Positions 1 to 23,651 of a stretch of 24,000 bases of DNA are shown here, in pieces. Origin of the DNA: an uncultured candidatus Brocadiaceae bacterium. Its GTDB lineage: Bacteria; Planctomycetota; UBA11346. Under the pieces are notes generated by a model. The model was not told where the DNA came from, ran no database searches, and worked only from the letters and a program-made list of their open reading frames with translations. The translations under genes were made by a program, and so were the position numbers. Each line of letters opens with the position of its first letter. Position 1 is the first letter of the stretch. The stretch is from contig CAYONM010000010.1 of assembly GCA_964405325.1 (NCBI GenBank), positions 12,445 to 36,444 on the forward strand. Reading direction: 5' to 3'.

Positions 1-182
1 CCAATGCGTTCTTGATCCCCTTTGGTGGCAAACTCGATGCCCGCAACAAGGATGAAATAAAGGCCCGGCAATTGATGGTAGAAGGGGTGTTGGCGATCCA
101 GGCGGGTGAAAATCCCAATGTGATCAAGGAACGCCTGATGGGTTTCCTGCCGCCCAAGGATCGTCCGGTGGAGGAACGATAA
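1..182 (+). CDS. motA: Flagellar motor stator A subunit (MotA/PomA family), C-terminal fragment; the 5' end lies outside the window
   Basis: Frame 3 is open from the window edge to TAA at 180-182. My translation is ..NAFLIPFGGKLDARNKDEIKARQLMVEGVLAIQAGENPNVIKERLMGFLPPKDRPVEER. This fits the conserved last-helix/C-terminal tail pattern of MotA-type proteins (..IQAGENP..I...L..FL). The stop overlaps the ATG of the following MotB-like gene (TAATG). Confidence 0.8.
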   Translation, partial: NAFLIPFGGKLDARNKDEIKARQLMVEGVLAIQAGENPNVIKERLMGFLPPKDRPVEER

Positions 183-901
183 TGGCTGAAAAAGGCGGGC
201 CTCCTCCCACACCCAAGTGGATCGTCACCTTCACCGACCTGATGTCGCTGTTGTTGACCTTCTTTATCCTCTTGTTGACCTTTTCAACACCACGAAAGGA
301 GAAGCTGTACGAGCTGCGTGGATCGATCAAAGGCACCTTCGGTATCTTCGCCGATGCCAAGGATGATCGCGACACCTTCATCTCCCCTTCCGAGCGACGT
401 ATTGGCCGTGACCAGCGTAATCCCTTTGCGCCAGCACAACCGCCACGTTTTCGTCCTCTAGAAGTGCACGAGCCCAACGCCGTGTTGATGAAATTGAAGG
501 ACCAGAGTGGCGATGAATTGCTGGTGGACGCCATCGACGAGGGTTACCGCATCCGCATCAAGGACACCATTGTCTACGACTCGGCTGCGGAGTTGATGCA
601 TTCCAGCGGTTACGACCACCTGGACAAGATCGCCAAAGCGATCGAATTCATGCCCTACCATCTGGTGGTAGTAGGGTTTGTCGGCGGTGCCGAGGAACGC
701 CTGGTGCGCGAACGCGGTATGAATCCCATGGATCTGGCGATCCGCCGCGCGGTGCACTTGGCCGAACGCCTGATGCAGCGTCACCGTGTGCCCGGTGAGA
801 TCATTGGTGTTGCCGGCTATGGTCCGCCATCGGGCGATCAGGGTCCCGGTCGCGCCGAATTCCTACTGATCGACCGCGAACGTTTCCGACGAGGAAATTG
901 A
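182..901 (+). CDS. motB: Flagellar stator B subunit, MotB-like (paralog 1, 239 aa)
   Basis: The N-terminus KWIVTFTDLMSLLLTFFILLL is the MotB signature single TM helix with the invariant Asp (D19 here). The C-terminal half has a degenerate OmpA/MotB-like signature (NPMDLAIRRAVHLAERL ... GVAGYGP). The ATG overlaps the motA stop. Confidence 0.8.
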   Translation: MAEKGGPPPTPKWIVTFTDLMSLLLTFFILLLTFSTPRKEKLYELRGSIKGTFGIFADAKDDRDTFISPSERRIGRDQRNPFAPAQPPRFRPLEVHEPNAVLMKLKDQSGDELLVDAIDEGYRIRIKDTIVYDSAAELMHSSGYDHLDKIAKAIEFMPYHLVVVGFVGGAEERLVRERGMNPMDLAIRRAVHLAERLMQRHRVPGEIIGVAGYGPPSGDQGPGRAEFLLIDRERFRRGN

Positions 902-923
902 AGGAAAGGCGAAAGGCGCAGCG

Positions 924-1646
924 ATGCCTGAAGAAGAAGAGGATTCCGTCGGCGAAGTACCTGCCTACATGGTGAGCTTCGGCGATATGATTACCCTCCT
1001 GTTGACCTTTTTCATTCTGCTGGTCGCCCTGGCCGATACCCAGACCGCCGGTCTGGTGGGAGCAGGCCGTGGACCGCTGGTCCGTCACGTCAATGCCAAG
1101 GGGGAGCCAGGTATTTTCAAGGGGCATCTGATCGAACGGCGCATGCAGTATAAACGCGACAGCTGGTGGATTCCCGATCAGGAAGGTGACCCCGACCAAC
1201 TGGAGGTGGTGCGTGAAAAATTGCAGCGGGAATTGGTGACCAAGTTCAAGCCCGATGAAGCGTCGATCCGTTATGAAAAGGACCGTCTGGTGATGCGGCT
1301 GCCGGCAAAAATTGAATTCGATGCCCAGGGTCGACCGATGGTCTCTGATGCCATGCGTGAAGTGTTGCGCAGCATCGCCCAGATCGCCTATCGGCGCCCG
1401 AATCGCTATATCCGTATCAATGGCGAGGTCGCTCCCGGCGGTAGCCGACGAGACGAATGGTTGGCGAGTGCGCATTTGTGTGAATTGGTATATCTGAATC
1501 TGGTGTGGAACGGCATGACCGCCAAGCGGATCAGTCTCTGGGGATGGGGTGCGTCGCGCCGGATCGCCGCCGCCGCCGCCATCGATCGCGGTGTCACGAT
1601 CGAAGTTCTGGATGTGCCCGTAGAGACCGGGCCGGAATCATTCTGA
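924..1646 (+). CDS. motB: Second MotB-like stator B subunit (paralog 2, 240 aa)
   Basis: PAYMVSFGDMITLLLTFFILLVALA repeats the MotB TM/Asp signature (D21). The C-terminal OmpA-like region is more degenerate (RDEWLASAHLCELVYLNL ... ISLWGWGAS). A purine-rich AAGGAAAGG lies upstream of ATG 924. The DNA differs from motB paralog 1 at synonymous positions, so this is not a recent duplication. Confidence 0.7.
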   Translation: MPEEEEDSVGEVPAYMVSFGDMITLLLTFFILLVALADTQTAGLVGAGRGPLVRHVNAKGEPGIFKGHLIERRMQYKRDSWWIPDQEGDPDQLEVVREKLQRELVTKFKPDEASIRYEKDRLVMRLPAKIEFDAQGRPMVSDAMREVLRSIAQIAYRRPNRYIRINGEVAPGGSRRDEWLASAHLCELVYLNLVWNGMTAKRISLWGWGASRRIAAAAAIDRGVTIEVLDVPVETGPESF

Positions 1647-1662
1647 AGGTAAGGAGGGCAAC

Positions 1663-2232
1663 ATGGCCGAAGAAGATAACGATGCTGTCGCTGAGGGCAC
1701 GGAGCCAGCTGCGGCCAAAGGGAAACAAACGGGTGGTGGCGGCATGGCTGGCCCCATTGCGGCCTTGGCGCTGACCCTGGTGATCGGTGTCGGCCTGGGC
1801 ATGCTGATTCTACGGCTGCTCAGCCCACCCAGCGAGGAAGCCGAAGCGCAACAGGAAGAGCAACAGCACGTACAGGCCGAAGACGAGCTCGATCTCATCA
1901 GTACGACCGAAATCCTGTTTGCTGATGTCATCGCCAACCTCAAAGGTGAGGTGGGTCGCTATGTCAAAGTCACCGTCGGTGTCTGGTTCGACAAGAACGA
2001 TCCCGATTTTCCGAAGATCATGGACGAGCGGGTGCGCCGCATCTTGCAGGAACAGATGATCGAGGAATTACGCTCATACGATCAGAAGCAGCTGGCCGAT
2101 GAGTTCGTACTGGAGCAGATCCGCAAAGGCTTCTCCGATCGCATGGATCGGGAATTGCGTCGTATCCTGCATACGGGTTCTGAAAAGACCTATGTCCGAA
2201 AAATCGTCATGTCCGACCTGATCCTACAGTAG
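1663..2232 (+). CDS. fliL: Flagellar basal-body-associated protein FliL (189 aa)
   Basis: Strong SD AAGGAGG at 1651-1657. One N-terminal TM helix (IAALALTLVIGVGLGMLILRLL). This is followed by the FliL core pattern ILFADVIANLKGEVGRYVKVTVGVWFDKND. Its position between motB and fliM is typical. Confidence 0.8.
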   Translation: MAEEDNDAVAEGTEPAAAKGKQTGGGGMAGPIAALALTLVIGVGLGMLILRLLSPPSEEAEAQQEEQQHVQAEDELDLISTTEILFADVIANLKGEVGRYVKVTVGVWFDKNDPDFPKIMDERVRRILQEQMIEELRSYDQKQLADEFVLEQIRKGFSDRMDRELRRILHTGSEKTYVRKIVMSDLILQ

Positions 2233-2241
2233 AGCGTACCC

Positions 2242-3246
2242 ATGGCCGACGACATTCTCAGTGCAGACGAACTCGAGGCCCTCCTCGCTACGGTGGAAGA
2301 CGAGGGCCAGGGGAAGCGCTATCGCGAGAAGCGGGTCCAGGAATATGACTTTGTCCGGCCGAATAAACTTTCCGGGGATCAGGTCCGCAGTCTGCAGCAC
2401 ATGCACGAGACCATCGCTCAGAATCTGACCATGGCCTTGTCGCCGTATCTTCGGGTCAATCTGGAAGTCAACCTGATCAGCCTCGGGCAATTGACCTTCG
2501 AGGTGTTTCGGAATTCCCTTTCCAACCCGACCGTGATCAACGTGTTGAACATGGCGCCTCTGGAGGAGCGCTCGTTGGTCACCATCGATATGAAACTCGC
2601 GTTCAGTCTGATTGATCGCATGCTTGGCGGTGCCGGTAAAAGCCTGGAAAGTATGCGGCCGCTGACCCTGATCGAGCAAAGCCTATTGGACAACGTGGTG
2701 CAGCGTTTCCTCGATCGGCTGCGCGAAGGCTGGGAGCAGTTGGCGCGTTTCACCGCCGAGGTCGAATCGCGGGAAATGGATCCGCAATTCATCCAGGTGA
2801 TTCCTTCTTCGGAAATGGTGATGGTGGTCACCTTCAGTGTTCAGGCACCTGGCGAATTGGAGGCGGGCGAGATCTGTTTTTGCGTCCCCTTCATCAGCCT
2901 GGATCCGATTCTCGGCCGTTTGGGTGATAGCTTCCAATTCGCCAGCGCCCAGCGGGTCCAGACCGAACCACAGCGGCAGCACCTGCATCACGTAGTCGAG
3001 GAGACAACGCTTCCCCTGGTGGTGCAGCTGGGTACCAGCACATTGACGATTGGTGAGGTGTTGGAATTGCAGGAGGGTGATGTACTGGTCTTGGATCAAC
3101 GGCACGACGAGGCCTTGCAGGGTAAGGTGCTTGATCGCCGCAAGTTGACCGGTCGACCGGGTCGGGTCGGCAAGAAATTGGGTTTGCTGGTGGAGGGGGT
3201 CCTCCCCAGCGGACCGCCTTTCATGGATATGGAAAAGAGGAGCTAG
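2242..3246 (+). CDS. fliM: Flagellar motor switch protein FliM (334 aa)
   Basis: N-terminal CheY-P binding peptide LSADELEALL. This is followed by YDFVRPNKLSGDQVRSLQHMHETIAQNLTMALSPYLRV, and a C-terminal SpoA-like segment LPLVVQLGTSTLTIGEVLELQEGDVLVLD. Confidence 0.9.
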   Translation: MADDILSADELEALLATVEDEGQGKRYREKRVQEYDFVRPNKLSGDQVRSLQHMHETIAQNLTMALSPYLRVNLEVNLISLGQLTFEVFRNSLSNPTVINVLNMAPLEERSLVTIDMKLAFSLIDRMLGGAGKSLESMRPLTLIEQSLLDNVVQRFLDRLREGWEQLARFTAEVESREMDPQFIQVIPSSEMVMVVTFSVQAPGELEAGEICFCVPFISLDPILGRLGDSFQFASAQRVQTEPQRQHLHHVVEETTLPLVVQLGTSTLTIGEVLELQEGDVLVLDQRHDEALQGKVLDRRKLTGRPGRVGKKLGLLVEGVLPSGPPFMDMEKRS

Positions 3247-3249
3247 GAC

Positions 3250-3642
3250 ATGGCCGACGACGACGAGAACAACAGCGAAACCGGCTCAGAAGAGGTTCAG
3301 GCCGCCGATTTTCCCGATCTGGCCGGCAGCGGCGATACCGAGGACAGCACCCCCAACCTGGACATGGTCCGCGATATCAAGGTGGTTCTCACCGTAGAAC
3401 TGGGCCGCACTGACATGTTGATCCAGGAAATACTTGAGCTGACACCCGGCAAGGTGATCGAGTTGGAGAAACTTGCTGGTGAACCTTTGGATATCCTGGT
3501 GAATGATAAATTACTCGCTCGCGGCGAGGTGGTGGTGGTCGACGAAAATTTTGGCGTCCGCATCACCAGCATCATGGACCCGCGCAGTCGTGTCCAGGTG
3601 ATGGGACCGGGCAACGAGAATCCACCGCCGATGGTGTCGTGA
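3250..3642 (+). CDS. fliN: Flagellar motor switch protein FliN (130 aa)
   Basis: SD GAGGAG at 3236-3241. SpoA/FliN core DIKVVLTVELGRTDMLIQEILELTPGKVIELEKLAGEPLDILVNDKLLARGEVVVVDENFGVRITSI, preceded by an acidic N-terminal tail. Confidence 0.9.
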   Translation: MADDDENNSETGSEEVQAADFPDLAGSGDTEDSTPNLDMVRDIKVVLTVELGRTDMLIQEILELTPGKVIELEKLAGEPLDILVNDKLLARGEVVVVDENFGVRITSIMDPRSRVQVMGPGNENPPPMVS

Positions 3643-3664
3643 GCTCTCGGATCGTTCCGGGCGC

Positions 3665-5365
3665 CTATTCCTCCGTGTCCAGCCCGTGCACGGTCTTCTC
3701 CCAGTAATGCGGTCGCCGGATCAGCTGCCAGGCGCCTTTCCAGGCGGCTAGGCTCATCAGCAACCAGTAGACCGGCAGGGCCAGCACGGTGCGGATGGAG
3801 TCGAAGTGTTGCTGGGGGTGGCGACCACAGAGTACATGCAGGATGGCGAAAAGGAGGTTGGACAACAAGAGGGTGATGCTGGCCAGGCTGAGGGTGATGC
3901 TGGCCAGGCTCCACCAGGCATTTTCGCCGACGCCGATGTACAGTATTGGCCAACTCCAGCGGTCGATGGCCCAGGGCCGGGTACTCAGGCATTCCCACAG
4001 GCCGTAACCCAGAGTGATATCGTGACCCAAGGCCATGAGATAATAAGCCAGAATCAGCCACAACAGTGGGTTGAGCAGCAACAAAACCGGTGTGCTGGCG
4101 ACCACGATGCTGAACCAGGCGGTGCCTAGCAGGCCCAGGCGACGCAGCAGCAGCAGTGGCTGTCGGTACCAGACCAGGGCGGTTTGCAGATAACCCTTCA
4201 GCCAACGGCTGCGCTGGCGCAGCCAATTACCGATCTGGCTGTTGGCTTCCTCCCAGGTGGTACTGTCCAGCAGGCCGACACGATGACCGGCCAGGGCCAG
4301 GCGCAGGCCCAGATCGCAGTCTTCAGTCACGTTGAAGGGATCCCAGCCGCCGCAGGCGCGCAGCGGCAGGGACCGAAAATGATTGCTGGTGCCGCCCAGT
4401 GGGATGGGCGCGCGCAAGCGACAGAGGCCGGCCAAGTACCAGCCGAACCAGCCATTATATTCTTGGCTGAAAAGTTGGGTCAGCAGATTTTGCCGTGGAT
4501 TGCGGAAAGCCAGACGCGCCTGCAGGCACACAACCTGTTCGGATTCCTGGCGAAAGGCGTGCACCGCTTTGCGCAGCTGATCGGGCTCGGGACGGTCCTC
4601 GGCGTCGTAGATCACCAGGAATTCGCCGCGTGCCCGGTGTAGGCCGTGGTTGCAGGCGCGTGGTTTGGTGGTGGGCGGTGCAGGTGGCGTGATCAGCACT
4701 TCCCAGCCGGCGGGTAGGTTCATGGCGGCCAGGGCCTGTCGGGTTTCGGAATCGTCGGCTTCGAGCAAAAGTTTGACATCCAGCTTGTCGTATGGGTAAT
4801 CAAGGGCTTGCAGTGCGGCCACGGTCTGGTGGATGATGGCCGCTTCGCGGTAGACCGGTACCAGCACGGTGTAGGTGGGCCAGTCGGTTTCCTCACCAGG
4901 CAGACGGTGGACGTGTATGCTGCCGGCACGCAGCACCGCCAGCAGGCGGCCGAGCACTACCAGCAGGTACGCCATGCAGATCGTAGCGGTGATGAGGCTG
5001 GCGCTGATCAGATAATCATAGGCGGTCAGGTAGCAAAGTGCCGCCACGGCGCCGCCAAGGAACCATTCGAGGCGGATGCCGCGCAGCAATACACCGAACG
5101 CTCCGGCCAGGGCCATGCCGATGAAAACCGGTCGGGCTTGGGCCAGCCAGGTCTGCAGCCAGAGCGGGAGATGGGGATCCGGTTCGGCTGGCAGCTCGAC
5201 CATCAGGCGATGGCAGACCGCGCCCGTAATCAGGCAGACAAACCAGGCAAGGGGTATCCACAGCGGCCGCAGCACCACTCGGCTGCAACGGCGAGCGTGT
5301 TGGCGCTGATAAGCGGTGACCAATGGATCGCGACCCTGTTCGTCGGGTGGCAGTTCGACGATCAT
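3665..5365 (-). CDS. Integral-membrane family-2 glycosyltransferase of the processive synthase type (566 aa from ATG 5365)
   Basis: The ORF track starts at TTG 5377. The first ATG (5365-5363) forms an ATGA overlap with the tsaE stop (5364-5362), so I call 5365. Several hydrophobic helices lie N-terminal. The GT-A core carries VLVPVYRE, LLEADDSET, VIYDAEDRP, GGTSNHFR, VTEDCDLGLRL (TED) and QRSRWLKGY (QxxRW). More hydrophobic helices follow. This motif set is the hallmark of BcsA/PgaC/Alg8/HAS/NodC-like processive beta-glycan synthases. Confidence 0.85.
   Translation of the reverse strand: MIVELPPDEQGRDPLVTAYQRQHARRCSRVVLRPLWIPLAWFVCLITGAVCHRLMVELPAEPDPHLPLWLQTWLAQARPVFIGMALAGAFGVLLRGIRLEWFLGGAVAALCYLTAYDYLISASLITATICMAYLLVVLGRLLAVLRAGSIHVHRLPGEETDWPTYTVLVPVYREAAIIHQTVAALQALDYPYDKLDVKLLLEADDSETRQALAAMNLPAGWEVLITPPAPPTTKPRACNHGLHRARGEFLVIYDAEDRPEPDQLRKAVHAFRQESEQVVCLQARLAFRNPRQNLLTQLFSQEYNGWFGWYLAGLCRLRAPIPLGGTSNHFRSLPLRACGGWDPFNVTEDCDLGLRLALAGHRVGLLDSTTWEEANSQIGNWLRQRSRWLKGYLQTALVWYRQPLLLLRRLGLLGTAWFSIVVASTPVLLLLNPLLWLILAYYLMALGHDITLGYGLWECLSTRPWAIDRWSWPILYIGVGENAWWSLASITLSLASITLLLSNLLFAILHVLCGRHPQQHFDSIRTVLALPVYWLLMSLAAWKGAWQLIRRPHYWEKTVHGLDTEE
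3869..3910. repeat. Perfect 21-bp direct tandem duplication (2 copies) inside the GT2 gene
   Basis: GAGGGTGATGCTGGCCAGGCT occurs at 3869-3889 and again at 3890-3910, identical. On the coding (-) strand each unit reads AGC CTG GCC AGC ATC ACC CTC = SLASITL, giving ..WWSLASITLSLASITLLLSNLLF.. in a predicted C-terminal TM helix. Confidence 0.95.
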
Positions 5366-5811
5366 GCCGGGGTCCAATCACGGTCGGCCGGGATCTGGAT
5401 GTCTGCCAGTCGGCCCGGTTGCTGATGGTGTAGCGACACCGACCATAGTACTGGTACTTCATGGACCAGGTCGGCTATGCGCGCTGCCCATTCGACGCAG
5501 GCGATGCTGTCGTCCAGCAATTCGAAAAAACCCAGTCCGCACAGGTCGCTCAGACCGTGCAGGCGATAGGCGTCCACGTGCACGATCGGCGGGTTGGCCT
5601 GGTAGTGATGCAATAGCGTGAAGGTGGGACTGGCCACCGCTGCGGGATCGCCGCCGCGGGCTTGGACCAGGCCGCGCACCAAGCTGGTCTTGCCGGCCCC
5701 CAGCGGACCATCAAGCGCGAGGGTGTCGCCGATATGCAAAACCGCCGCCAACTGGGCACCAAGGGCCTGGGTGGCGGCGGGATCGGGAAGCGAGACGTGA
5801 TGCACGGGCAT
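5362..5811 (-). CDS. tsaE: tRNA threonylcarbamoyladenosine (t6A) biosynthesis ATPase TsaE/YjeE (149 aa)
   Basis: Walker A in LALDGPLGAGKTSLVRGL, then SPTFTLLHHY, HVDAYRL and IACVEWA. This is the full TsaE motif series in the canonical order and spacing. The ATG at 5811-5809 was verified. Confidence 0.9.
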   Translation of the reverse strand: MPVHHVSLPDPAATQALGAQLAAVLHIGDTLALDGPLGAGKTSLVRGLVQARGGDPAAVASPTFTLLHHYQANPPIVHVDAYRLHGLSDLCGLGFFELLDDSIACVEWAARIADLVHEVPVLWSVSLHHQQPGRLADIQIPADRDWTPA

Positions 5812-5831
5812 GGGCCCATGATGAAGCCCGG

Positions 5832-8800
5832 TCAGGGGGCGTACAGTCGCACGATGCCGTCAGCTGACGACAGCACCAACAGTTCACCCAATTGACAGGG
5901 GGCGAGCATGTCTTGATCGGAGTTGATGGTGAAGGGACGCGGCCCCATGACGGTGGCGGTTTTGCCGTGCACCAGCACCGCATGGCCTTGCCAGGCCATG
6001 GGGGCTTCGGTCAGGCGCTGCCGCATCGGGGCGATTTCTTTCCAGCTGCTATCATCCTGCTGCAGGAAGATGCGGTTCTCGTTGGACAGGAAGACACCAG
6101 GACCGCCGCGTTTGACCACTGCCGGCAGGCCGCTGGTCTGGAAGCGTCCATCGGAGAAGGTCCAGGCTCCGGTCATGGTATAACCGCCGACGCCGTTTGC
6201 GGTGGGCCAGGCGGCCGGCACCACATCGCCAATATCGGTGCTCTCCAGGAGGTTGCCGTTGTCCGGATCGAATTGCAGCAGGGTGCCTTCTGCCAGCACC
6301 ACCAATAGCCGTTCGTCGCGGATCACCGGATTGCTCATCACCTTCGATTGGCAGGACTGCTCCCAGACCGGCAGGCCAGTAGCGGTTTCCACGGCGCGGA
6401 TGGTGTTGTCGAGATCGGCGATGATATACAGCCGGCGGTCGACGATCAGATCGGATTCGAAGACCACGACCGCGTAGTTGGTTTGACCAGAAATCCCACC
6501 TCGTTCTACCGCGCTGGTTTTCGGGTCGATTTCCAGCACGAAGTTGTCGCGCGTGGTGACATAGACATGGTCGCCATAGCGGGCGGCCGGGGCGTAGATC
6601 GGGTTGTCCAAGGCCTGTACCGCCAGGGCGGCATCGTTGTTACCGCTCCAGTAGCGATTGATCTCAGCCTGTGGATCGATGGCGAACACGCCACGGCCAC
6701 CAGCGACCCAGACCCGTCCGTCGATCACTGCCGGACGCGAGGAGATGATCTGTTTGCAATCAGCCTTGCCGACAGCGACCCGTTTCAGGTTAACCGCGAT
6801 CTGCCAGCCGGAACGGGCGTTGATTGCAGGGACCGCCACGCTCTGGTAGCCATCGAGTTGGAATTGATAGACGGTTTCGGCACGATCATCAGCTGCCAGT
6901 CGTTCGATCAGCATCGGTGTGGTGCCGATGACCGCATCCTCGACGCTGATGGTCGCCTTGGCCGGGGTGGTGCTGAGGAAGAGTGGCAATTGTTCCAGGT
7001 TGAGTTTTTCCGCCAGGGTGCGCACGGCGACGATATCACCAGCAGCCATGGCCTCGTGCATGCGTTCGACATCGGCTAGCTGCTCCGCAACCAGCCGATC
7101 GGCGCTGGCGATCTCCTTGGTGGCGATCTCGGCTGCTTCGGTGCGTTGCCACATCAGTTGGTCGATCACCGTCTGATACTGGGCCTTGGCGGCCTGGGCG
7201 CGGCGTTGTCGCATCAGTTCCCGGGCGCTTTCCAGGGCTTCCATCGCCTGCTGTTGCAGCACTTGCAGATTCTTCTGCCGTTCCTGGAGCACCATCTGCG
7301 CGGTCTTGTCAAGATTCGGTTGCTGCAGCAGGCCAGCGATTTGAATCAGCTCCTCTTGCAAGGTCATGTTGTCGATGGCTTCTTGCAGCTGACCGCACCA
7401 GTTGAGCAGCTGCTCGAACTCGCTGCTTTCAGCGATGGCTGGATAGTCGGCCATGACCTGTTTCAAGGATTGCTGCGCCCGTTGTAGATCGTTGCCACGA
7501 ACGTCACTGGCGATGGCTTTCTGGACCGCGGTGCGTGCGCTGTCGATATCACGTCGGCTCTTGACCAACTGTTGCCGCAGGCGTCGCAGGGCCAGGCCGA
7601 TCTCCGAATCTTCGCCCTCCAACTGCAGGCCTTGGCTGAGGCCTTCGGCCTGATCCACCAGACCGCGGGTCGCCATGTCCAGGGCATTGGCCAGACGCTT
7701 CTTGATGCTTTCCTGTTGTTGCAGCAGGTCGTTGCGCATACCGGTCAAGGTGCGCTGCTGCTCCTCGTTGGGACCGGATTTCAAGATTTGTTCGATCAGT
7801 CGCAACCGGGCATTGGTGCTCATGCCTTCCAGACCGCTGAGTTCTTCGATCCGCCGTTGCCGCCATTCGTCCAGGCGCTTCTGCAGAGGTTCGCGCAGCA
7901 GTGACAGTTTAACAGATTCAACCAGACCCAGGGCGGTATCGGCTTGATTGCTGTTGAGCAGTTTGCCGACCTTGTCCTGCAAGTCGCTCAACTGTTGCTG
8001 GACATTGGCCCGTGCCGTGTTGTAGGCACTGCGGAGGCTGTCGAGTTTTTGGACCAGCTGCGGCTGCCAGATCAGCGAGTCGGGGGGGATGACGGTCGGA
8101 TAGGACTGCAGCCGCAGCTCGGTCTTGTTCAGTTCTCTGTTGGCGACCAGTTTTTCGAGCTGTTCCAGTTTTTGGGTGATCTGGACCCGCTTATCGGCGC
8201 AGACCTGTTCCAGTTTGGCGGAGAGGGCGATGTCCTGGCCAGCCAGGTCCATGGCCTCCGATACGTGTTTTTCAGCTTCCTGCCATTGGTGCGACACGAT
8301 GGCCCCGTCCAGTTGGGTGCTGAGGGCGTCGACTGCCACCGAGGTTTGCTGGGCCCGCACCACCACGAAGGCGAGGAAGCCGATGGAGACCAGGACGATC
8401 AGCAGCACCGACCAGACCAGCAGGCGATTATCGCCGACCGGGCGCAGGGTGGAATTGCTGTAGACTTGGAAGTCGTCCATCGCTGCCGGGCTGCCGGCGG
8501 CGGGTTGCGGGGTCATGTTGCCGGAGGCAGGAATGGTGACGGGCGCAGCGGCGGCCGCTGGACTGGGTGCCGGCGCTTCGTCCACCGGCTCCTCTTCGTA
8601 CACTGGTGGTTGTTCTGACACCAGGCCATGATCGCGCAGGCTTTTCAGATAGCAGGCGATATTGATCGTGCTTTCGCGCAGGGAGCTGGCGATGTCGCGT
8701 ACATTTTTGGCACCATCCACCATCATTAAGACGTGCTGTTCCATCTCGTTGATGCTGGTGCGGGCCGGGTCGACGTGGGTCCGGTAGTAGACCCGATTGA

Positions 8801-9308
8801 AGTCGTTGATCACCGAGAGCACTGCGTCGCGCTCTTGGACCCGCGATTGGACCATGGAGAGCAGCATTTCGCTTTCGATGCGGATCTTCAGGGCTCCCAC
8901 GTCCAGGTCGAAGGGCTCGATGGCCGGATCGCCCTCGGCACGGAAGATCAATTGCTGGCATTCCTGGGAGAACAGGTTGATCAGCACCTGTTCCACCATG
9001 CAGCGTTGGATCGTGGCGGCCTCGTCACCGGAGATCAGTCGCTGCTTCTGCAGCGTGTCCACGATCGGTGTGGCCTGATTCTGATACAGGGAACAGGCCA
9101 ATTGGAACATGGCCTGGTCGATCTTGTGGAACTCCAGAAAGGTCTTGGCGAGGACGATTTCCTTGTCTTCGCCAAGGTCGAGGAGCAGGAGCTGACCGTC
9201 TTCAAAATAGAAGCGGTAAATATGATCCGCCACGCCCACCACCAGGGCGCCGGAACGCCTGTCGGATGCGATGTTTTGAATCTCAGCGACCAGTCGGTTG
9301 TTCAACAT
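5832..9308 (-). CDS. Giant bitopic membrane protein 'B' (1158 aa): PATAN/DUF4388-like N-domain, TM, long helical region, PEGA-like domain, PQQ/BamB-like beta-propeller; function unknown
   Basis: ATG 9308-9306 is preceded by GAGGTG, which overlaps the upstream gene's TAG.
Domain map (hand motif calls):
- aa 5-125 (nt 8934-9296): LVAEIQNIASDRRSGALVV..YRFYFEDGQLLLL, DUF4388-like.
- aa 185-230: MMVDGAKNVRDIASSL..YLKSLRDHGLV.
- aa 233-280: Pro/Ala linker.
- aa 296-317 (nt 8358-8423): TM, LLVWSVLLIVLVSIGFLAFVVV.
- aa 320-775 (nt 6984-8351): Q/E/L/R/A-rich helical region.
- aa 776-845 (nt 6774-6983): LFLSTTPAKATISVEDAVIGTTPML..FQLDGYQS, PEGA-like.
- aa 850-1158 (nt 5835-6761): beta-propeller-like repeats (NTIRAVETATGLPVWEQ, GTLLQFDPDNGNLL, ADGIVRLY). 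Confidence 0.8.
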   Translation of the reverse strand: MLNNRLVAEIQNIASDRRSGALVVGVADHIYRFYFEDGQLLLLDLGEDKEIVLAKTFLEFHKIDQAMFQLACSLYQNQATPIVDTLQKQRLISGDEAATIQRCMVEQVLINLFSQECQQLIFRAEGDPAIEPFDLDVGALKIRIESEMLLSMVQSRVQERDAVLSVINDFNRVYYRTHVDPARTSINEMEQHVLMMVDGAKNVRDIASSLRESTINIACYLKSLRDHGLVSEQPPVYEEEPVDEAPAPSPAAAAAPVTIPASGNMTPQPAAGSPAAMDDFQVYSNSTLRPVGDNRLLVWSVLLIVLVSIGFLAFVVVRAQQTSVAVDALSTQLDGAIVSHQWQEAEKHVSEAMDLAGQDIALSAKLEQVCADKRVQITQKLEQLEKLVANRELNKTELRLQSYPTVIPPDSLIWQPQLVQKLDSLRSAYNTARANVQQQLSDLQDKVGKLLNSNQADTALGLVESVKLSLLREPLQKRLDEWRQRRIEELSGLEGMSTNARLRLIEQILKSGPNEEQQRTLTGMRNDLLQQQESIKKRLANALDMATRGLVDQAEGLSQGLQLEGEDSEIGLALRRLRQQLVKSRRDIDSARTAVQKAIASDVRGNDLQRAQQSLKQVMADYPAIAESSEFEQLLNWCGQLQEAIDNMTLQEELIQIAGLLQQPNLDKTAQMVLQERQKNLQVLQQQAMEALESARELMRQRRAQAAKAQYQTVIDQLMWQRTEAAEIATKEIASADRLVAEQLADVERMHEAMAAGDIVAVRTLAEKLNLEQLPLFLSTTPAKATISVEDAVIGTTPMLIERLAADDRAETVYQFQLDGYQSVAVPAINARSGWQIAVNLKRVAVGKADCKQIISSRPAVIDGRVWVAGGRGVFAIDPQAEINRYWSGNNDAALAVQALDNPIYAPAARYGDHVYVTTRDNFVLEIDPKTSAVERGGISGQTNYAVVVFESDLIVDRRLYIIADLDNTIRAVETATGLPVWEQSCQSKVMSNPVIRDERLLVVLAEGTLLQFDPDNGNLLESTDIGDVVPAAWPTANGVGGYTMTGAWTFSDGRFQTSGLPAVVKRGGPGVFLSNENRIFLQQDDSSWKEIAPMRQRLTEAPMAWQGHAVLVHGKTATVMGPRPFTINSDQDMLAPCQLGELLVLSSADGIVRLYAP

Positions 9309-9318
9309 GGGGTCACCT

Positions 9319-12300
9319 CTATTCCAATCTCAAGGCCATGATAGCGCCGTCTTGCAGAGCGACGACCAGGAGGTCGTCTATGAATCCGATGGCCTGAGCC
9401 GCTTGGGGCAAGTGTCGTTGCCAGACCAGTCGAGTATCACGATAAGCGAGCAGTCGTCGATCGTTATCCGCGAGAATCGTGAAGGGGCCACGCACACCCG
9501 CACAGCTGACCGGAACCGCGGATGGAATGATCTGTGCTAATTGTCCATTGTCATGCACTTGGTGGATGCCGTCGGTGGTCGCCAGCAGCACTTGGCCGGC
9601 ATCGTGCATGGGTGGCTCCACCAGGCTGGCGGGCAAGGGTTGTTCCCAGCGCAGTTGCAGACCTTGTTGATCGGCGCCGACCAGGGCCAGGCGGCTATCG
9701 TCCAGCACCGCGATGTAGCGACCATGCTTCCATTGCCGCAGGTGGTCCACTTGGGCCGCCCCCAGATCCAGACGCCAGGCACGCACCCGGTCCACCTCGT
9801 TCCAGCCCAGCAGGTGGCCACTGATGGAGGCCATCAGCAGGATCTGATTGGTATCGTCGCGATAGAGACAGGGCCCGGCGATCAGCGGTTCGCCCACGTC
9901 CACGGTGCGCAATTGGCCGTCCACCACCAATTGCAGCGAGGACGCGGCCATGGCGTAGCGAAGTTCCGGACCAAACAGTTCGTTGCGGTAGAGTAGAGGA
10001 CGGTCGTATAGCGTGCCGTTCAGGTCCACCTGGAAGGTCTCACGGCCGGCGAAATTAAGCTGATGGATGATGCCGGCGCCATCGTCGTAGACGATCAGAT
10101 GGTCATCCTCGGCGATGGCGACGCTGCGGTGCCACCGGGGCGTGTCGCCCAGCCCCAGGTCCTGGATCCGCTTGCGCCAGAGCAGCTGCCCGTCGTTGTT
10201 CAGGCAGCCCAGGCCATCGCGTTGCCACAGTAGCAGGCGTCCTGGCCCCAGGCTCTGCAGACCGTCGGCGGGCTGATTGTTGCGGTAGGTCCACACGATG
10301 GCGCGTTGCGGTCGAACCTCCCAGCGCCAGTCGTCACTGAGTTCTTGGATGCGCGCTTCCACCGGCTCGCAGCCCGGATACTCGATACGCAGGCGTTCCG
10401 CCGAGTCGGGTTGGATGAACATCACCGTCGGCACGCTGCCGATGGATTGCCCGCCCCGCAAGACCCGGCCGCCGGGTACCGCGCTCTCGATCACCAGTGG
10501 CAGCACCAGCTGCTTGCGGGTATCCGGAAAATCCCGGTGCAGCTCCTGGCCGCGCGCGTGCATGCTGGCCCAGTCCTCTTGCTCGCGCGCGGCCTGGTAG
10601 GCCAGCTCCAGGTCGCGCCGTCGTTGGCCCTGGCGCCGTAATTCCTGGCGCAACGCTTGGACCGCTGGCAAGTGGCGGCTGCCGGGAAAACTGGCCAGGA
10701 AGCGTTCGATTGCAGCCATGTCGGGGTCCTGCTGCAGCACGGTCCAATTCCGATCGGCCTGCTGCTGATTGGCGCGGATCACCAGGACAATGGCGTTCAG
10801 GCGCGGGCCGGCCTGCCAGGACTTGGCGGTTTCCTGCAGTGCCGCGGCACTATCGAGGGCGGTACGGTAGTCGCGTTGTCCGGTTTGCTGCAGTTGTTCC
10901 AGACTGGCACGGAACTGCTGCAGCCGCTCGGTGAGACGATCGGCCATGGCGGCAGCATCGCGGGCGACGATGGTGTTGCTGCTGGTGCGCAGGTTCTCCG
11001 CCAGCTGGAGGGCGGCTTGCAGACGGCCTTCCTGCTCGGCCTGCGTGGCTTGCCGTAGTTGTGCCGGGGCCTGATCTGCCAGCGCCTGTTCGTCGGCGAT
11101 TTCGGCTTCGAGTCGTTTCAGCCGTTGTTCCAGCTCCACCAGTTGGACCGCGTGAATATCGCTGCCGAAGACCGTCTTGAACCGCTGCAGGGTGTTGCGC
11201 GCCGCTTCGGCTTGGCGGGCGGCCAGGTGCCGCTGGATGCGGACCAGATCCGCTTCGGCAAAGGACTGCCTGGCCTGGCTGACCAGCATCTCGATGGGAT
11301 GCCAGGCTTCGCTGGTATCACCGCCAACCTCGCTGGCGCGTTTGGTCAGCTCCTTTTTGATGTCGACGATCTCCAGATACGCGTTGGCGCCACCGTCTTG
11401 GCTGAGCAGCATTTCGGCGCGCTCGATTTGGGTGTCGGCGTATTCGCGGAATTCGCGGATACGATATTGCCGCAACAGGATCAGGAGCAGCGCGGCCAGC
11501 AGGACCAGCAAGGCGAAGCTGTAGACGATGCTCGCACGCCGATGATTGGCGACGGCCGTGGCCAGCATGCCTTGTAGCCGCGGTCGGCGGGCATCGTCCT
11601 CGCTGAGACTCTGTAGCGCACCTTTATAGCAGCGGACTGCGATATAGTATCGCCGGCTTTGATTGGCCTTGTTGCCGCGGACGATCAGCTGCTCCACCGT
11701 GTGGTGATGGGCCAGCATCTCCATTTCCCGCAAATGCTGGCGAATATGGCGGCTTTCCGGACGGGAGCGGGCGATTTCGCGCCAAATATCCAGGGCCGTG
11801 GTGTAATCGTGTCGATTCTTGGCCTCGACCGCTTGCTGCACATTGTTTCGGAATGTGCTGTCCTCGCTGCCGCCGACCGCAGCGAAGATATTGCTCTCCG
11901 AGCTATCGGTCGCCTGCCGGTGCGGATCGTGACCACAAAAAATACAGACCTCGTCCGACACCATCACCGGTCGGGTGCACTGCGAGCATTCGATCTCCAG
12001 GAGGGCTTTGCAGGCACTGCAGTGGCTGAGGCCACGTTTATTGACCTGGCCGCACTCGATGCAGAGCACTTCGTCCTGGCCGAATTCCCAAGCATCATTG
12101 TGCCGGACCGCCTGGGCCAGTAGATGGCGGGCGTCGATATCGCCGGGATTGCTGTCGAGCACCTCCAGGCACAGGTCCTGGGCGCTGTGCCAATGGCCAT
12201 CCTCCAGCTGCTGATAGGCCAGGTCCAGACGTTCGCGCCGGGCGCGTGCGAAATCGCCAGACTCGTCCAGGCACTGGATCAGCACCTTGCATTCGGTGAC

Positions 12301-13299
12301 GGCTTTGCCGTGGCTGAGCTCTATCGCGCGCCTGGCCGAAGCGAGGGCCTCGGTATGCGCTCCATCTGCCAGGTGCCCCAGGGCCAGCTGTCGATAACAG
12401 CCAGCGGCTTCGGGGGCGTCGCCGAAACGCTCCAGGGAAATGGCCAGGGCCCGGACCAAGCTGGAATCCGATGGATTGATGGCCAAAGCGCGGCGATACA
12501 GCCGGCTGCTGCGGCCGAAATCACCAACGCTGTCGTAATAGGCGGCGTTGTTGCGGATTTGTACATTGTCCAACGGGGCCAGCAGCTGGTGATCCAGCAG
12601 ATCCACCAGGACCGCGTAGACATCCAAGCGGGTGGCGACGCTTTCGGCGACCAGTTCCTCGACCGAGCGGATGCCGTCGATCAGGGGGATGACCGAATTG
12701 GCCGGATAATCCTGGGACAGGTCATCCAGCAGTTCGCGCGAGCCAGCGGTTTCGGTAAGTATGATGTCATTCGATGGTAGCGCCGAGCGAATGCGGCCCC
12801 ATTCGTCCAGGCGGCGAGCTGATTCCATCAGCAGGCTGTCGGCCTGCAGGCCGACGCCGAGTTTCTGGGAGCGAGCGATCATTTCATCGACGTTATCGGC
12901 CTGGCCGGATTCGACGAAGGTGAAGTTCGCTTCTTCCCAGGTGAACAGGTCGTAGAGCTGATCCTGCATCAATTGTTGAATAATGTCCCGGGTGCGCGCG
13001 TCCTGCAGCCGGCCGCTGTCGATAAGGCGGCCCAGGGTGACATAACCGCCGGAGCCGGTTTCTTCGATTTCGGCAAATTCGATATCGGCAATGACGCCAC
13101 AGGCTTCCATGCGCTGCAGCAGATCACGATCCCCTTGGACGCTGCGATCGATGATCTGCGTAACGACCCCATGGTCGAAGATCACATCAGCGCCTCGCTC
13201 GACCGCATCCAGGCTTAACACGCCGGTGGCATCGGTACGGGCAAGGGTCTGAAAAATCTCCGCCAGGGATAGGGTCCTGAGCGTGCCCGACAGAGCCAT
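9319..13299 (-). CDS. Giant bitopic membrane protein 'A' (1326 aa): PATAN/DUF4388 domain, TPR-like repeats, double zinc ribbon, TM, long helical region, PEGA-like domain, beta-propeller; function unknown
   Basis: ATG 13299-13297 verified; no SD upstream.
Domain map (hand motif calls):
- aa 3-128 (nt 12916-13293): LSGTLRTLSLAEIFQTLARTDATGVLSL..VIFDHGVV, canonical DUF4388/PATAN opening.
- aa 155-240: LLMESARRLDEW and PLIDGIRSVEELV segments.
- aa 250-400 (nt 12100-12552): TPR-like (YRRALAINPSDSS.., LEVLDSNPGDIDA..).
- aa 413-455 (nt 11935-12063): CIEC-x10-CSAC-x7-CSQC-x10-CIFC, double zinc ribbon.
- aa 590-610 (nt 11470-11532): TM, IVYSFALLVLLAALLLILL.
- aa 612-930 (nt 10510-11466): helical region.
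- aa 931-998 (nt 10306-10509): VIESAVPGGRVLRGGQSIGSVPTV..RIEYPGCEP, PEGA-like.
- aa 1000-1326 (nt 9322-10302): divergent beta-propeller-like repeats (DGLGCLNNDGQLLWRK, DGAIMALRLE). Confidence 0.8.
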   Translation of the reverse strand: MALSGTLRTLSLAEIFQTLARTDATGVLSLDAVERGADVIFDHGVVTQIIDRSVQGDRDLLQRMEACGVIADIEFAEIEETGSGGYVTLGRLIDSGRLQDARTRDIIQQLMQDQLYDLFTWEEANFTFVESGQADNVDEMIARSQKLGVGLQADSLLMESARRLDEWGRIRSALPSNDIILTETAGSRELLDDLSQDYPANSVIPLIDGIRSVEELVAESVATRLDVYAVLVDLLDHQLLAPLDNVQIRNNAAYYDSVGDFGRSSRLYRRALAINPSDSSLVRALAISLERFGDAPEAAGCYRQLALGHLADGAHTEALASARRAIELSHGKAVTECKVLIQCLDESGDFARARRERLDLAYQQLEDGHWHSAQDLCLEVLDSNPGDIDARHLLAQAVRHNDAWEFGQDEVLCIECGQVNKRGLSHCSACKALLEIECSQCTRPVMVSDEVCIFCGHDPHRQATDSSESNIFAAVGGSEDSTFRNNVQQAVEAKNRHDYTTALDIWREIARSRPESRHIRQHLREMEMLAHHHTVEQLIVRGNKANQSRRYYIAVRCYKGALQSLSEDDARRPRLQGMLATAVANHRRASIVYSFALLVLLAALLLILLRQYRIREFREYADTQIERAEMLLSQDGGANAYLEIVDIKKELTKRASEVGGDTSEAWHPIEMLVSQARQSFAEADLVRIQRHLAARQAEAARNTLQRFKTVFGSDIHAVQLVELEQRLKRLEAEIADEQALADQAPAQLRQATQAEQEGRLQAALQLAENLRTSSNTIVARDAAAMADRLTERLQQFRASLEQLQQTGQRDYRTALDSAAALQETAKSWQAGPRLNAIVLVIRANQQQADRNWTVLQQDPDMAAIERFLASFPGSRHLPAVQALRQELRRQGQRRRDLELAYQAAREQEDWASMHARGQELHRDFPDTRKQLVLPLVIESAVPGGRVLRGGQSIGSVPTVMFIQPDSAERLRIEYPGCEPVEARIQELSDDWRWEVRPQRAIVWTYRNNQPADGLQSLGPGRLLLWQRDGLGCLNNDGQLLWRKRIQDLGLGDTPRWHRSVAIAEDDHLIVYDDGAGIIHQLNFAGRETFQVDLNGTLYDRPLLYRNELFGPELRYAMAASSLQLVVDGQLRTVDVGEPLIAGPCLYRDDTNQILLMASISGHLLGWNEVDRVRAWRLDLGAAQVDHLRQWKHGRYIAVLDDSRLALVGADQQGLQLRWEQPLPASLVEPPMHDAGQVLLATTDGIHQVHDNGQLAQIIPSAVPVSCAGVRGPFTILADNDRRLLAYRDTRLVWQRHLPQAAQAIGFIDDLLVVALQDGAIMALRLE

Positions 13300-13305
13300 A
13301 AACCC

Positions 13306-13334
13306 AAGTTATTATTGCACATGGCAACTGTCAA
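13306..13334 (-). promoter_or_regulatory. Candidate sigma70-type promoter for gene A, positioned for a leaderless or near-leaderless transcript
   Basis: The minus strand reads TTGACA (13334-13329), a 17-nt spacer, TAACTT (13311-13306), then GGGTTT and ATG (13299). The -35 is perfect and the -10 is weak (3 of 6). The A of the ATG is the 7th nt after the -10 hexamer. No Shine-Dalgarno sequence is present. Confidence 0.25.
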
Positions 13335-13425
13335 TCGACCCCCCCAGAAGCATCGGACCAGCCTGTGACGGATCCCATCGGGAGGGGCCTTGGCGAAAGC
13401 CGGTCAGGGCTTCTGATGCCCGGCC

Positions 13426-14330
13426 ATGGCCTGCTCCGCCTATCTGACCTGCCCGGCCTATCCGCTGCGCGATGCGCAGATGCTTTTGCATGCGCAACTT
13501 TGCGCAGATGGCTGGGCTCGTGAGCTTGGGTGGCAGCTGCAGTGGAGTCCCTTGTGCTGGCGTTTCGGCCCACGAGGGCAGTGGCATCCGGCCGCTGATC
13601 GGGCCGCGGATCTACACCAGGCGTTGGATCACACGCTGCTCTGGGGGCTGCGTGGTGGTTACGGCTGCGTCGAACTGATCACGGAAATGCAGGGTTGGGG
13701 CGCTGATGGTCCGGCCGTGGTGGGCTTCTCCGACCTGACCGTGCTGCACGCGCTGCGCTGGCGCCAGGGCGCGCGGCCGGGCATCTATGGTCCCATGCCG
13801 GCGGTAGCAGCTGGAGCACGGGCCCGTTGCAGCCTGATTGAGGCGGCCAGTGGCCGTGCCTGGCAGATCACCAGTGCGGAATCGGCTGGCCATGGCCAGC
13901 GCAGCGGTCAGGCCGAGGGCCGCTTGTTTGCCGCTTGTTTGCGGGTGCTGGCCAGTCTGGTCGGTACTCCGGCCCAGCCGGATCTGGATGGCAGCATCCT
14001 GGCCATCGAGGACATCGATGAAGCGCCGTATGCGGTGGATCGCGACCTACAGCAGCTGCATGCCGCTGGTCTGCTGCGCGGTGTCCGAGCTTTACTGGCG
14101 AATCGCTTCCCTTGGCAGCCGGAGGTGGATCATGGTGGTCCGCCAGCAGCAGCCGTGATTGCCGCTTGGGCCGAGCGGCTGGGCATCCCAGCTCTGGTCG
14201 GTTTGCCTTTTGGCCATGCTCCCGACCCACTGGCGCTGCCGCAGGGCCGTTTGGCCTGGCTGCGGGTGACCGGTCCGGACGAGTGGGGTTTTGGCTGGGC
14301 TGCCGGGGCTGGCCTGATGGGAGAGAAAGC

Positions 14331-14334
<4 letters not shown>
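13426..14334 (+). CDS. ldcA: LD-carboxypeptidase (peptidase S66, muramoyltetrapeptide carboxypeptidase-like), 302 aa
   Basis: S66 catalytic-triad contexts occur in the right order: GFSDLTVLH (Ser), EDIDEAPYAVDRDLQQL (Glu), GLPFGHAPDPLALPQG (His). Upstream lies RAADLHQALDHTLLWGLRGGYGCVELI, typical of the N-domain. The stop TGA 14332-14334 overlaps the uvrA GTG. Confidence 0.7.
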
Positions 14335-17219
<2,885 letters not shown>

Positions 17220-17444
17220 CGAAGGTGTTTCCCGATTTAACCGCTAGAAAAAGCATCCATGGGCCGGGAGTCAAGAAACCAAACTGTTGGAGCCGGGGCC
17301 GCTTGCGCTCCACGATCGGCAGCGGCTGGCCAGGCAAGGGCGCGAAGGTCAGGCGACCGAGTATCAAGCGCCTGGTAATGTCTCCCCTATTGCAGCATTG
17401 GACAAGGCGAAACGGCGGCTGTAGGAGATGATCCCGGTTGGGTA

Positions 17445-17473
17445 TTGCCGCTGGTCGGGCCAGCCAGATTATG
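17445..17473 (+). promoter_or_regulatory. Candidate sigma70-type promoter for the cytochrome b562-like gene
   Basis: TTGCCG (17445-17450), 17-nt spacer, ATTATG (17468-17473). This lies about 38 nt upstream of ATG 17512, with AGGAG at 17501-17505. Hexamer match only. Confidence 0.2.
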
Positions 17474-17511
17474 CCGGATTCACATCGACACTCTGCTGTA
17501 AGGAGATTCCC

Positions 17512-23546: not shown

Positions 23547-23593
23547 GACCTGTCTCCATTCCGGTCTGAACTTAACCTTTCTAAACAAGTAAA

Positions 23594-23622
23594 GCAAGCG
23601 TTTGCGCAGTTTTCGCGCTTGC
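23594..23622. promoter_or_regulatory. 7-bp inverted repeat in the divergent intergenic region (possible operator or hairpin)
   Basis: GCAAGCG (23594-23600), 15-nt spacer, CGCTTGC (23616-23622). It lies between the LamG lipoprotein start (23546) and the + strand ORF start (23652). No known motif assigned. Confidence 0.15.
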
Positions 23623-23651
23623 CTGGGCCAATCAGCCCGGAGCGTTGTGAT

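Follow-up and report, generated by a model that had tools for sequence, protein, structure and literature searches.

A putative XagB-like glycan synthase with a TsaE partner, encoded beside a pair of PATAN-domain envelope proteins in an uncultured Brocadiaceae bacterium

Glycosyltransferases of family 2 (GT2) that polymerise a glycan and translocate it across the membrane themselves are usually controlled by receptors for cyclic di-GMP (c-di-GMP) or by dedicated co-polymerases. TsaE is the universal ATPase of the tRNA N6-threonylcarbamoyladenosine (t6A) modification, which is its only established role, and the cell envelope of Planctomycetota is poorly understood. These subjects meet in a 24,000-nucleotide stretch of DNA (the window) from an uncultured planctomycete of the candidate family Brocadiaceae (contig CAYONM010000010.1, positions 12,445 to 36,444), in which two giant genes, here designated A and B, are followed on the same strand by tsaE and by a gene for an XagB-like GT2.

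Among the putative described relatives of this GT2, XagB has been linked to biofilm formation: both xagA and xagB are required for the raised biofilm of the rpfG mutant of Xanthomonas oryzae, and xagB contributes to the biofilm exopolysaccharide (EPS) (PMC3609779). In iron oxidisers, the bcsB-xagBCD clusters are candidates for stalk polysaccharide synthesis (PMC4643136). Fusions of glycosyltransferases with the MshEN domain, a c-di-GMP receptor, are already known (PMC5013675, PMC8669469). As for TsaE (YjeE), PMC10452758, citing Teplyakov 2002, mentions a long-suspected link to the envelope, based on the amiB neighbourhood and on the morphology defects seen upon depletion.

The original prediction for this DNA, made from its letters alone, had assigned A and B to the roles of co-polymerase and periplasmic scaffold in a non-canonical synthase-dependent system, with PATAN replacing PilZ, and had treated tsaE as a passenger. 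The current analysis makes it reasonably probable that the four genes instead form a single compact unit, probably co-transcribed and composed of two modules with separable evolutionary histories, tsaE-GT2 and A-B. The proposed co-polymerase role of A and B appears weakened by these comparisons, and the fusions of TsaE with the synthase, described below, were unexpected.

The GT2 synthase and its TsaE partner

The GT2 is a probable member of an XagB-like family, as judged by the automated name assigned in the pipeline of the Joint Genome Institute (JGI), "glycosyltransferase XagB," and by its 40-50% identity to a broad set of family members. In an alignment of 66 homologues, the catalytic residues D204/D205, D254-A-E-D257, T347-E348-D349, and Q384-R-S-R-W388 are invariant or nearly so. 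The C-terminal motif PHYWEKTVHG, which includes the conserved W-x-K-T loop motif, is invariant. Hydropathy and an AlphaFold2 model based on the same alignment (mean predicted local distance difference test score [pLDDT] of 91.9, predicted template-modelling score [pTM] of 0.90) both show four N-terminal and three to four C-terminal transmembrane (TM) helices around the GT-A domain; an interface helix is also seen in the model. The arrangement of the D, DxD, TED, and QxxRW motifs between TM helices, noted in the original prediction, is therefore borne out by alignment, hydropathy, and modelling. In the Foldseek search of PDB with this model, BcsA came first (4p00; E-value of 2.4e-14, TM-score of 0.54), followed by the vertebrate and Chlorella-virus hyaluronan synthases (HAS), yeast chitin synthase Chs1, and plant cellulose synthase CesA. 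Similarly, BcsA was the best match in a profile search of the PDB sequences (E-value of 1.8e-15). Assignment of the GT2 to the self-translocating synthases, also suggested at the outset, is well supported by the predicted fold and the motifs, and on these grounds the protein can be predicted both to polymerise and to export its product. It does not, however, belong to BcsA proper. Its Pfam matches are to the Glyco_tranf_2_3 / Glyco_trans_2_3 set and its best NCBIfam matches are to CelA and PgaC; the BcsA model TIGR03030, the top NCBIfam hit, gives 78.8 bits against a cut-off of 699.1, Pfam detects no PilZ domain in the protein, and no BcsB-like protein is encoded in the window.

According to a different reading, this GT2 would be a non-processive lipid glycosyltransferase of the monoglucosyl-diacylglycerol synthase or ceramide glucosyltransferase type, in need of no export partners. 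That would fit the Pfam match to Glyco_transf_21 (E-value of 1.6e-7), the automatic annotation of XagB-like genes as beta-monoglucosyldiacylglycerol synthase (PMC4643136), and the lack of a conserved export partner in the tsaE-GT2 subfamily. However, the structural matches to BcsA, HAS, and Chs extend over the full length of the protein, TM region included, CelA and PgaC remain the best NCBIfam matches, and both the QRSRW motif and the C-terminal W-x-K-T motif are present. In addition, members of the family pair with BcsB and are needed for the Xanthomonas biofilm phenotype (PMC3609779). A lipid glycosyltransferase is accordingly less likely than a self-translocating synthase, and we regard it as distinctly improbable.

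The protein encoded by tsaE retains all the features of its family. It matches the Pfam TsaE domain with an E-value of 1.8e-31 and scores 79.4 bits against the NCBIfam model TIGR00150, above the equivalog cut-off of 60.1. Given that all the canonical signatures of the t6A ATPase are kept, this protein is most likely still the cell's TsaE. The window contains neither tsaB nor tsaD.

Rather than being a passenger, tsaE turned out to be the only invariant partner of this GT2 in the loci compared. Of the 120 clusters of homologues closest to the GT2 (44-59% identity; most carry the label Planctomycetota), 25 consist of one polypeptide in which a TsaE domain (PF02367) precedes the GT2. The TsaE part of these fusions is intact, with GAGKT, SPTFTL, HxDAYRL, and EW invariant in the alignment of all 25. 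It is joined to the synthase by a variable, often Pro/Ala-rich linker of ∼20 to ∼300 residues, after which come the conserved motif IPADxxGxDPLVxxY...TCA, equivalent to the N-terminus of the GT2 in the window, and then the TM helices. The fusions in L087/L088 and L103 were verified on contig DNA as uninterrupted open reading frames (ORFs). In every one of the 13 loci that encode a GT2 with the full-length N-terminus (the window, L005, L006, L007, L009, L086, L087, L089, L101, L102, L103, L104, and L105), tsaE is either fused to the GT2 gene or located directly upstream of it. No tsaE was found near the genes for relatives with shorter N-termini, whether in Planctomycetota (L010, L011, L017, L040, and L106) or in other phyla. 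The first 22 residues of the GT2 in the window are modelled as a strand and a helix with pLDDT of 96-97, so that the N-terminus specific to this subfamily is likely structured. A full-text literature search yielded no paper describing a TsaE-glycosyltransferase fusion, and a search on Planctomycetes, DUF4388, and cellulose synthase yielded nothing relevant. The coupling of TsaE to a synthase, for which no description was found, is the more surprising outcome.

Outside this subfamily, the GT2 family is widespread. At least 599 relatives were found in a scan of one genome per species, and the catalytic and TM core of the protein (residues ∼120-562) shows 40-50% identity across Firmicutes, Chloroflexota, Actinomycetota, bacteria of the Candidate Phyla Radiation, Proteobacteria, and the Planctomycetota-Verrucomicrobiota-Chlamydiota group. 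An N-terminal MshEN domain is present in 29 of 67 such relatives, and a single one of the 67 is fused to TsaE. A BcsB-domain protein is encoded directly downstream of the GT2 relative in a Desulforamulus locus. Clustering of the neighbours around 80 GT2 loci from other phyla revealed no universally conserved partner; several of the ORFs downstream of these genes have no Pfam match. In the Victivallales/Lentisphaerae, a gene for a protein of ∼220-250 aa comes directly after that of the XagB-like GT2 and in some cases overlaps it by 4 nt (L012, L014, L018, L022, L023, and L026). A prepilin-type N-terminal methylation motif is present in both of the proteins that were scanned (L018 and L026), one of which also matches DUF1559; in this lineage, the synthase may thus have a pilin-like partner.

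In the mechanism that we propose, the GT-A domain would polymerise a sugar-nucleotide into a glycan in the cytoplasm, and the synthase would pass this product across the membrane through a channel that its own 7-8 TM helices form. TsaE would be supplied either from the gene directly upstream, with translational coupling, or as a fusion to the cytoplasmic N-terminus of the synthase, which is where the MshEN receptor is found in other phyla. Most likely, TsaE has kept its role as the t6A ATPase and is made together with the synthase or tethered to it. A stronger proposal would have TsaE serve as a functional subunit, whose ATPase cycle gates or activates glycan synthesis from that N-terminal position and may also make the output of envelope glycan depend on the status of translation or ATP. 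The adjacency in 13 of 13 loci is consistent with such a role, as are the recurrent in-frame fusions with linkers of very different lengths, the well-modelled subfamily-specific motif that follows TsaE, the presence of MshEN at the equivalent position in relatives, and the envelope hints in PMC10452758 mentioned above. On the other hand, TsaE retains all the t6A signatures and scores above the equivalog cut-off, and the ordinary function, together with co-expression or a neutral fusion of overlapping genes, would suffice to explain the same observations. The model of one fusion protein (P0007; pLDDT of 92.7, pTM of 0.79 versus 0.90 for the GT2 alone), for which pLDDT and pTM are the only measures, gives no support for a contact between the two parts. 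Such a subunit role is, in our view, unlikely.

Genes A and B and their linkage to the synthase

Both giant proteins are predicted to span the membrane once. In A, the N-terminal PATAN domain (DUF4388, PF14332; 75.7 bits against a gathering score of 25) is followed by TPR repeats at aa ∼255-400 and a double zinc ribbon. These TPR repeats lie N-terminal of the TM helix, on the same side as the cytoplasmic PATAN domain, and the predicted periplasmic part consists of a coiled coil, a PEGA-like region, and a C-terminal PQQ_2 beta-propeller. Relatives of A contain PATAN, TPR, DZR, PEGA, and PQQ_2 domains, with PEGA and DZR at or above the Pfam cut-off. In B, the match to PF14332 is borderline (24.8 bits against the gathering score of 25), and the periplasmic part comprises a long coiled coil, PEGA, and a PQQ_2 beta-propeller. 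Pfam searches on 33 members of the B family detected DUF4388 in 31 (E-value of 0.01 or less), PEGA in 20, and PQQ_2 in 19. With a single TM helix each, both proteins are bitopic; as predicted from sequence, the PATAN domains (in A, also the TPR repeats and the zinc ribbon) are cytoplasmic, and the coiled coils, PEGA domains, and propellers are outside. The domain calls of the original prediction for A and B hold in Pfam and in the relatives, and so does its placement of the TPR repeats and zinc ribbon of A on the cytoplasmic side, both of which precede the TM helix. A and B were also considered as possible paralogues, but BLASTP between them gave no significant match (best E-value of 0.25), and what they have in common is their architecture only.

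Word-indexed searches, run with the single B sequence and with an alignment of 33 B-family sequences, returned just 2 proteins, and an exhaustive HMMER search recovered ∼35 full-length representatives of the B family at the 50% cluster level. A metagenome scan with an alignment of 12 B-family sequences yielded 11 loci, which were then compared with the proteins of the window by tblastn.

The order found in the window, with the LD-carboxypeptidase gene divergent from A-B-tsaE-GT2, is also seen in L005 and L089, where the GT2 is ∼46% and B ∼27% identical to their counterparts in the window. In the B tree, these three loci group together as one clade. L090-L092, L095-L098, and L100 likewise have A and the LD-carboxypeptidase gene upstream of B, in several cases together with uvrA. 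However, tblastn detected no tsaE or GT2 anywhere in L090-L097, L099, and L100, although the sequence beyond B extends for another 3-10 kb in these loci. The A-B module thus occurs without a downstream tsaE-GT2 in 10 loci that represent five lineages of the B tree, and the genes that follow B there are mutually unrelated, coding for PutA, a GH4 hydrolase, CheA, an Rce1-like protease, and unknown proteins. Even the pairing of A with B is not universal: in L099 (1-10000), a B-family gene has neither A nor an LD-carboxypeptidase gene within 10 kb upstream, and the 1082-aa ORF that precedes it has no Pfam match. Conversely, tsaE-GT2 is found without A or B in 7 of the 10 evaluable loci (L007, L086, L087, L101, L102, L104, and L105, with 7.6-10 kb of upstream sequence), where its neighbours include gcvP, a Ser/Thr kinase gene and, in L101, a sugar-nucleotide/flippase cluster.

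The neighbourhoods of tsaE-GT2 show some recurrent features of their own. The gcvP gene is located directly upstream of tsaE, in divergent orientation, in L086, L087, L102, and L105, and a gene for an AraC-type (HTH_18) regulator is found 3-7 kb from tsaE-GT2 in L005, L086, L087, L101, L102, L103, and L105, that is, in L005 and in the majority of the loci without A-B. This neighbourhood could reflect clade synteny or a regulatory link. In L101 (1-9400), tsaE-GT2 is transcribed divergently from genes for NAD-dependent epimerases/dehydratases, APS kinase, methyltransferases, and a Polysacc_synt_3 flippase-like protein. This is the only locus seen in which the synthase gene adjoins sugar-nucleotide and polysaccharide genes.

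The co-occurrence of A- and B-like genes with this GT2, which the original prediction had offered as a test, therefore stands for the window, L005, and L089 and fails for the 10 loci with A-B alone and the seven with tsaE-GT2 alone. As each module occurs without the other, this synthase family does not require A and B as its co-polymerase or scaffold. What speaks for such a role is the tight operon, the order kept in three deeply diverged genomes, and the bitopic nature of both giants with their large periplasmic coiled-coil, PEGA, and propeller parts. Some additional support could come from weak DUF4388 matches that precede MshEN in 8 of the 67 non-planctomycete XagB-like GT2s, within the N-terminal ∼100-210 aa (L025, L039, and six other loci), and from the reported binding of PATAN response regulators to the MshEN-bearing pilus ATPase PilB (bioRxiv 10.1101/2021.06.11.447907). 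However, these matches are below the threshold (best E-value of 4.9e-6) and are not recovered by a hidden Markov model of the B-family PATAN domain in searches of the N-termini of the Firmicutes GT2 relatives (best E-value of 0.25), so that they offer a weak lead, a faint hint of a PATAN-GT2 link. Further, the linkage of the two modules is confined to one clade, and uvrA, an unrelated gene, has kept its place over the same evolutionary range as the four-gene order, which makes conserved order weak evidence of shared function. No outer-membrane component is encoded in the window, and none of the four proteins matches a PilZ, MshEN, or GGDEF/I-site domain in Pfam or NCBIfam. Taken together, these observations make it improbable that A and B are the co-polymerase and the scaffold of this synthase.

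In the two-module reading, which we favour, A and B would form a bitopic pair that travels with the LD-carboxypeptidase gene and uvrA and not with the synthase. In the clade of the window, the two modules would have come to lie side by side and to be transcribed together, so that their expression may be coupled; no obligate complex would be implied. Several points weigh against this interpretation. The sampling of loci is small and derived from metagenomes, and as the comparison was made at the level of loci, genomes in which the modules are unlinked may carry the other one at a different site. The order of the four genes has persisted through a very deep divergence, with B being only ∼27% identical, and could have been maintained by selection for co-expression in that clade. 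As for docking of TsaE on the synthase, the pTM of the fusion model speaks neither for nor against it. Finally, the polymer product of the GT2 is a prediction, as is even its use of a polymer rather than a lipid acceptor.

Layout of the locus and its neighbours

The window has ∼60% G+C throughout. The region from 3665 to 13299 consists of four ORFs on the minus strand (Table 1), whose coordinates, strand, and lengths were checked; the two short gaps and the ATGA overlap of the original prediction are as it had given them. Read directly, the junction between the modules has the stop codon of B at 5832-5834 and the ATG of tsaE ending at 5811. The listed GT2 ORF begins at a TTG at 5377, and the ATG at 5365, which produces the overlap, is the start used by public gene calls. 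This overlap is predicted to couple the translation of tsaE and GT2.

A scan of the region 3200-13800 found no terminator-like hairpin or T-tract in any of the junctions, in agreement with the original prediction. The numbers of sites in the consensus scan correspond to background, with 8 terminator-like sites observed versus 7.3 expected by shuffling and 3 promoter-like sites versus 2.5 expected, none of the latter in the junctions. The four genes thus look like one compact unit and are very probably co-transcribed; transcription from the divergent region upstream of A, the likely promoter region of the operon, is the simplest reading as far as sequence can tell. The divergent layout of A and the LD-carboxypeptidase gene is kept in L005, L089-L092, L095-L098, and L100. 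As noted in the original prediction, no gene for an outer-membrane porin or barrel, Wzx/Wzy, an ABC exporter, or sugar-nucleotide synthesis is present in the window.

Table 1. Features of the A-B-tsaE-GT2 locus (nucleotide positions in the window)
Feature	Nucleotides	Residues	Strand	Remarks
XagB-like membrane-embedded GT2 synthase	3665-5365	566 aa	-
GT2 conserved N-terminal cytoplasmic motif	5300-5365	1-22	-
GT2 GT-A domain	4166-4888	∼160-400	-	Predicted cytoplasmic
GT2 DAED motif	4595-4606	254-257	-
GT2 TED motif	4319-4327	347-349	-
GT2 QRSRW motif	4202-4216	384-388	-
tsaE/GT2 ATGA stop/start overlap	5362-5365		-	tsaE TGA over GT2 ATG
tsaE	5362-5811	149 aa	-	Walker A GAGKTS, SPTFTL, HVDAYRL, EW
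B-tsaE spacer	5812-5831		-	20 nt, no terminator; seam between the two modules
Gene B	5832-9308	1158 aa	-
B PATAN-like domain		10-116	-	Borderline DUF4388 (Pfam)
B single TM helix	8355-8423	∼296-318	-	Hydropathy
A-B spacer	9309-9318		-	10 nt; A stop at 9319, B ATG at 9308
Gene A	9319-13299	1326 aa	-
A PATAN/DUF4388 domain	12799-13290	4-167	-	Pfam E-value of 4e-21
A double zinc ribbon		413-456	-	Just under the Pfam cut-off
A single TM helix	11473-11529	591-609	-	Hydropathy
Divergent intergenic region, A versus LD-carboxypeptidase gene	13300-13425		.	126 nt
LD-carboxypeptidase gene (Peptidase_S66)	13426-14334		+	Conserved divergent neighbour of the A-B module; uvrA next, to 17219

In nearly all A-B loci, the Peptidase_S66 and uvrA genes (13426-17219 on the plus strand of the window) are the conserved divergent neighbours of A-B. 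The longest uvrA ORF starts at 14112 and overlaps the LD-carboxypeptidase gene, so the true start of uvrA probably lies close to 14331, where public gene calls also put it.

On the other side, a flagellar gene block (182-3642, plus strand) converges on the GT2 gene and is separated from it by a 22-nt gap. It encodes a tandem pair of MotB_plug paralogues, the first of them lacking the OmpA-like domain present in the second, followed by a FliL-like protein, FliM, and FliN. Beyond the window (L001-L004), the block continues with motA, flbD, fliJ, fliI, fliH, fliG, and fliF; in L005 and L089, no flagellar block adjoins the cluster. Past uvrA, an ORF for a cytochrome b562-like protein (17428-17901, plus strand; Pfam E-value of 9e-8) overlaps an antisense ORF of 166 aa with no family match (17158-17658, minus strand), and probably just one of the two is real. 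The minus-strand gene at 21258-23885 is unrelated to the cluster; its product of 875 aa contains two domains of the Laminin_G_3 (concanavalin-like lectin) type.

Significance and relation to known systems

What appears to be new in this locus is an XagB-like synthase of the BcsA fold with a seemingly unprecedented TsaE partnership, encoded beside an uncharacterised pair of PATAN envelope proteins. A lineage-wide replacement of the usual synthase input by a strict coupling to TsaE, often as a covalent fusion, would represent a new type of input, and the TsaE-GT2 fusion provides a concrete starting point for testing the envelope link of TsaE, suspected since 2002 but lacking a mechanism. The location of the GT2 gene in housekeeping contexts, and not in EPS islands, points to a possible conserved housekeeping envelope polymer in Planctomycetota. 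In its boldest and rather doubtful form, the idea would be that, across much of the Planctomycetota, TsaE belongs to an envelope glycan synthase as a subunit, both physically and as a regulator, with one clade further wired to the PATAN pair; if that is true, ATP or translation status would directly gate the synthesis of this polymer. The separation of A-B as a module linked to an LD-carboxypeptidase also steers experiments away from a co-polymerase model.

Of the known systems, the TsaBDE machinery of t6A synthesis is matched by the TsaE of the window (YjeE/YdiB) in its equivalog-level score and in all its signature motifs, but here the gene is paired with that of a membrane glycosyltransferase and not with tsaB, tsaD, or rimI. 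The systems typified by Alg8/Alg44/AlgK/AlgE, PgaABCD, BcsABC, and Pel are similar to this locus in having a self-translocating GT2, TPR repeats, and neighbouring bitopic proteins whose periplasmic parts are large. In contrast to them, the locus has no co-polymerase or regulator with a c-di-GMP receptor domain, no outer-membrane barrel, and no periplasmic TPR scaffold, since the TPR repeats of A are cytoplasmic, and its partner genes A and B do not co-occur with the synthase gene across genomes. Compared with BcsA itself (PDB entries 4p00, 4hg6, and 9b8v), the GT2 has the same GT-A domain between two TM bundles and the same D, DxD, TED, and QxxRW motifs, but is only ∼17% identical and has neither a PilZ domain nor a BcsB partner.

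The XagB systems, xagABCD of Xanthomonas and bcsB-xagBCD of Zeta- and Betaproteobacteria, share with the GT2 the automated JGI family name, in a family tied to the EPS/biofilm matrix; the catalytic and TM core of the GT2 is 40-50% identical to that of family members across phyla, including the one from Mariprofundus (L058). They differ in that the gene in the window has no xagA, xagC, xagD, or bcsB neighbour and its product lacks MshEN, carrying instead an N-terminal extension (aa 1-120) and having TsaE as an obligate partner or fusion. The MshEN-regulated GT2 synthases, such as E. coli NfrB, which is compared here by its description and whose MshEN domain is C-terminal (PMC8669469), resemble the GT2 of the window as synthases with a dedicated cytoplasmic regulatory module attached; in the subfamily of the window, however, there is no MshEN domain, and TsaE is found at that end instead.

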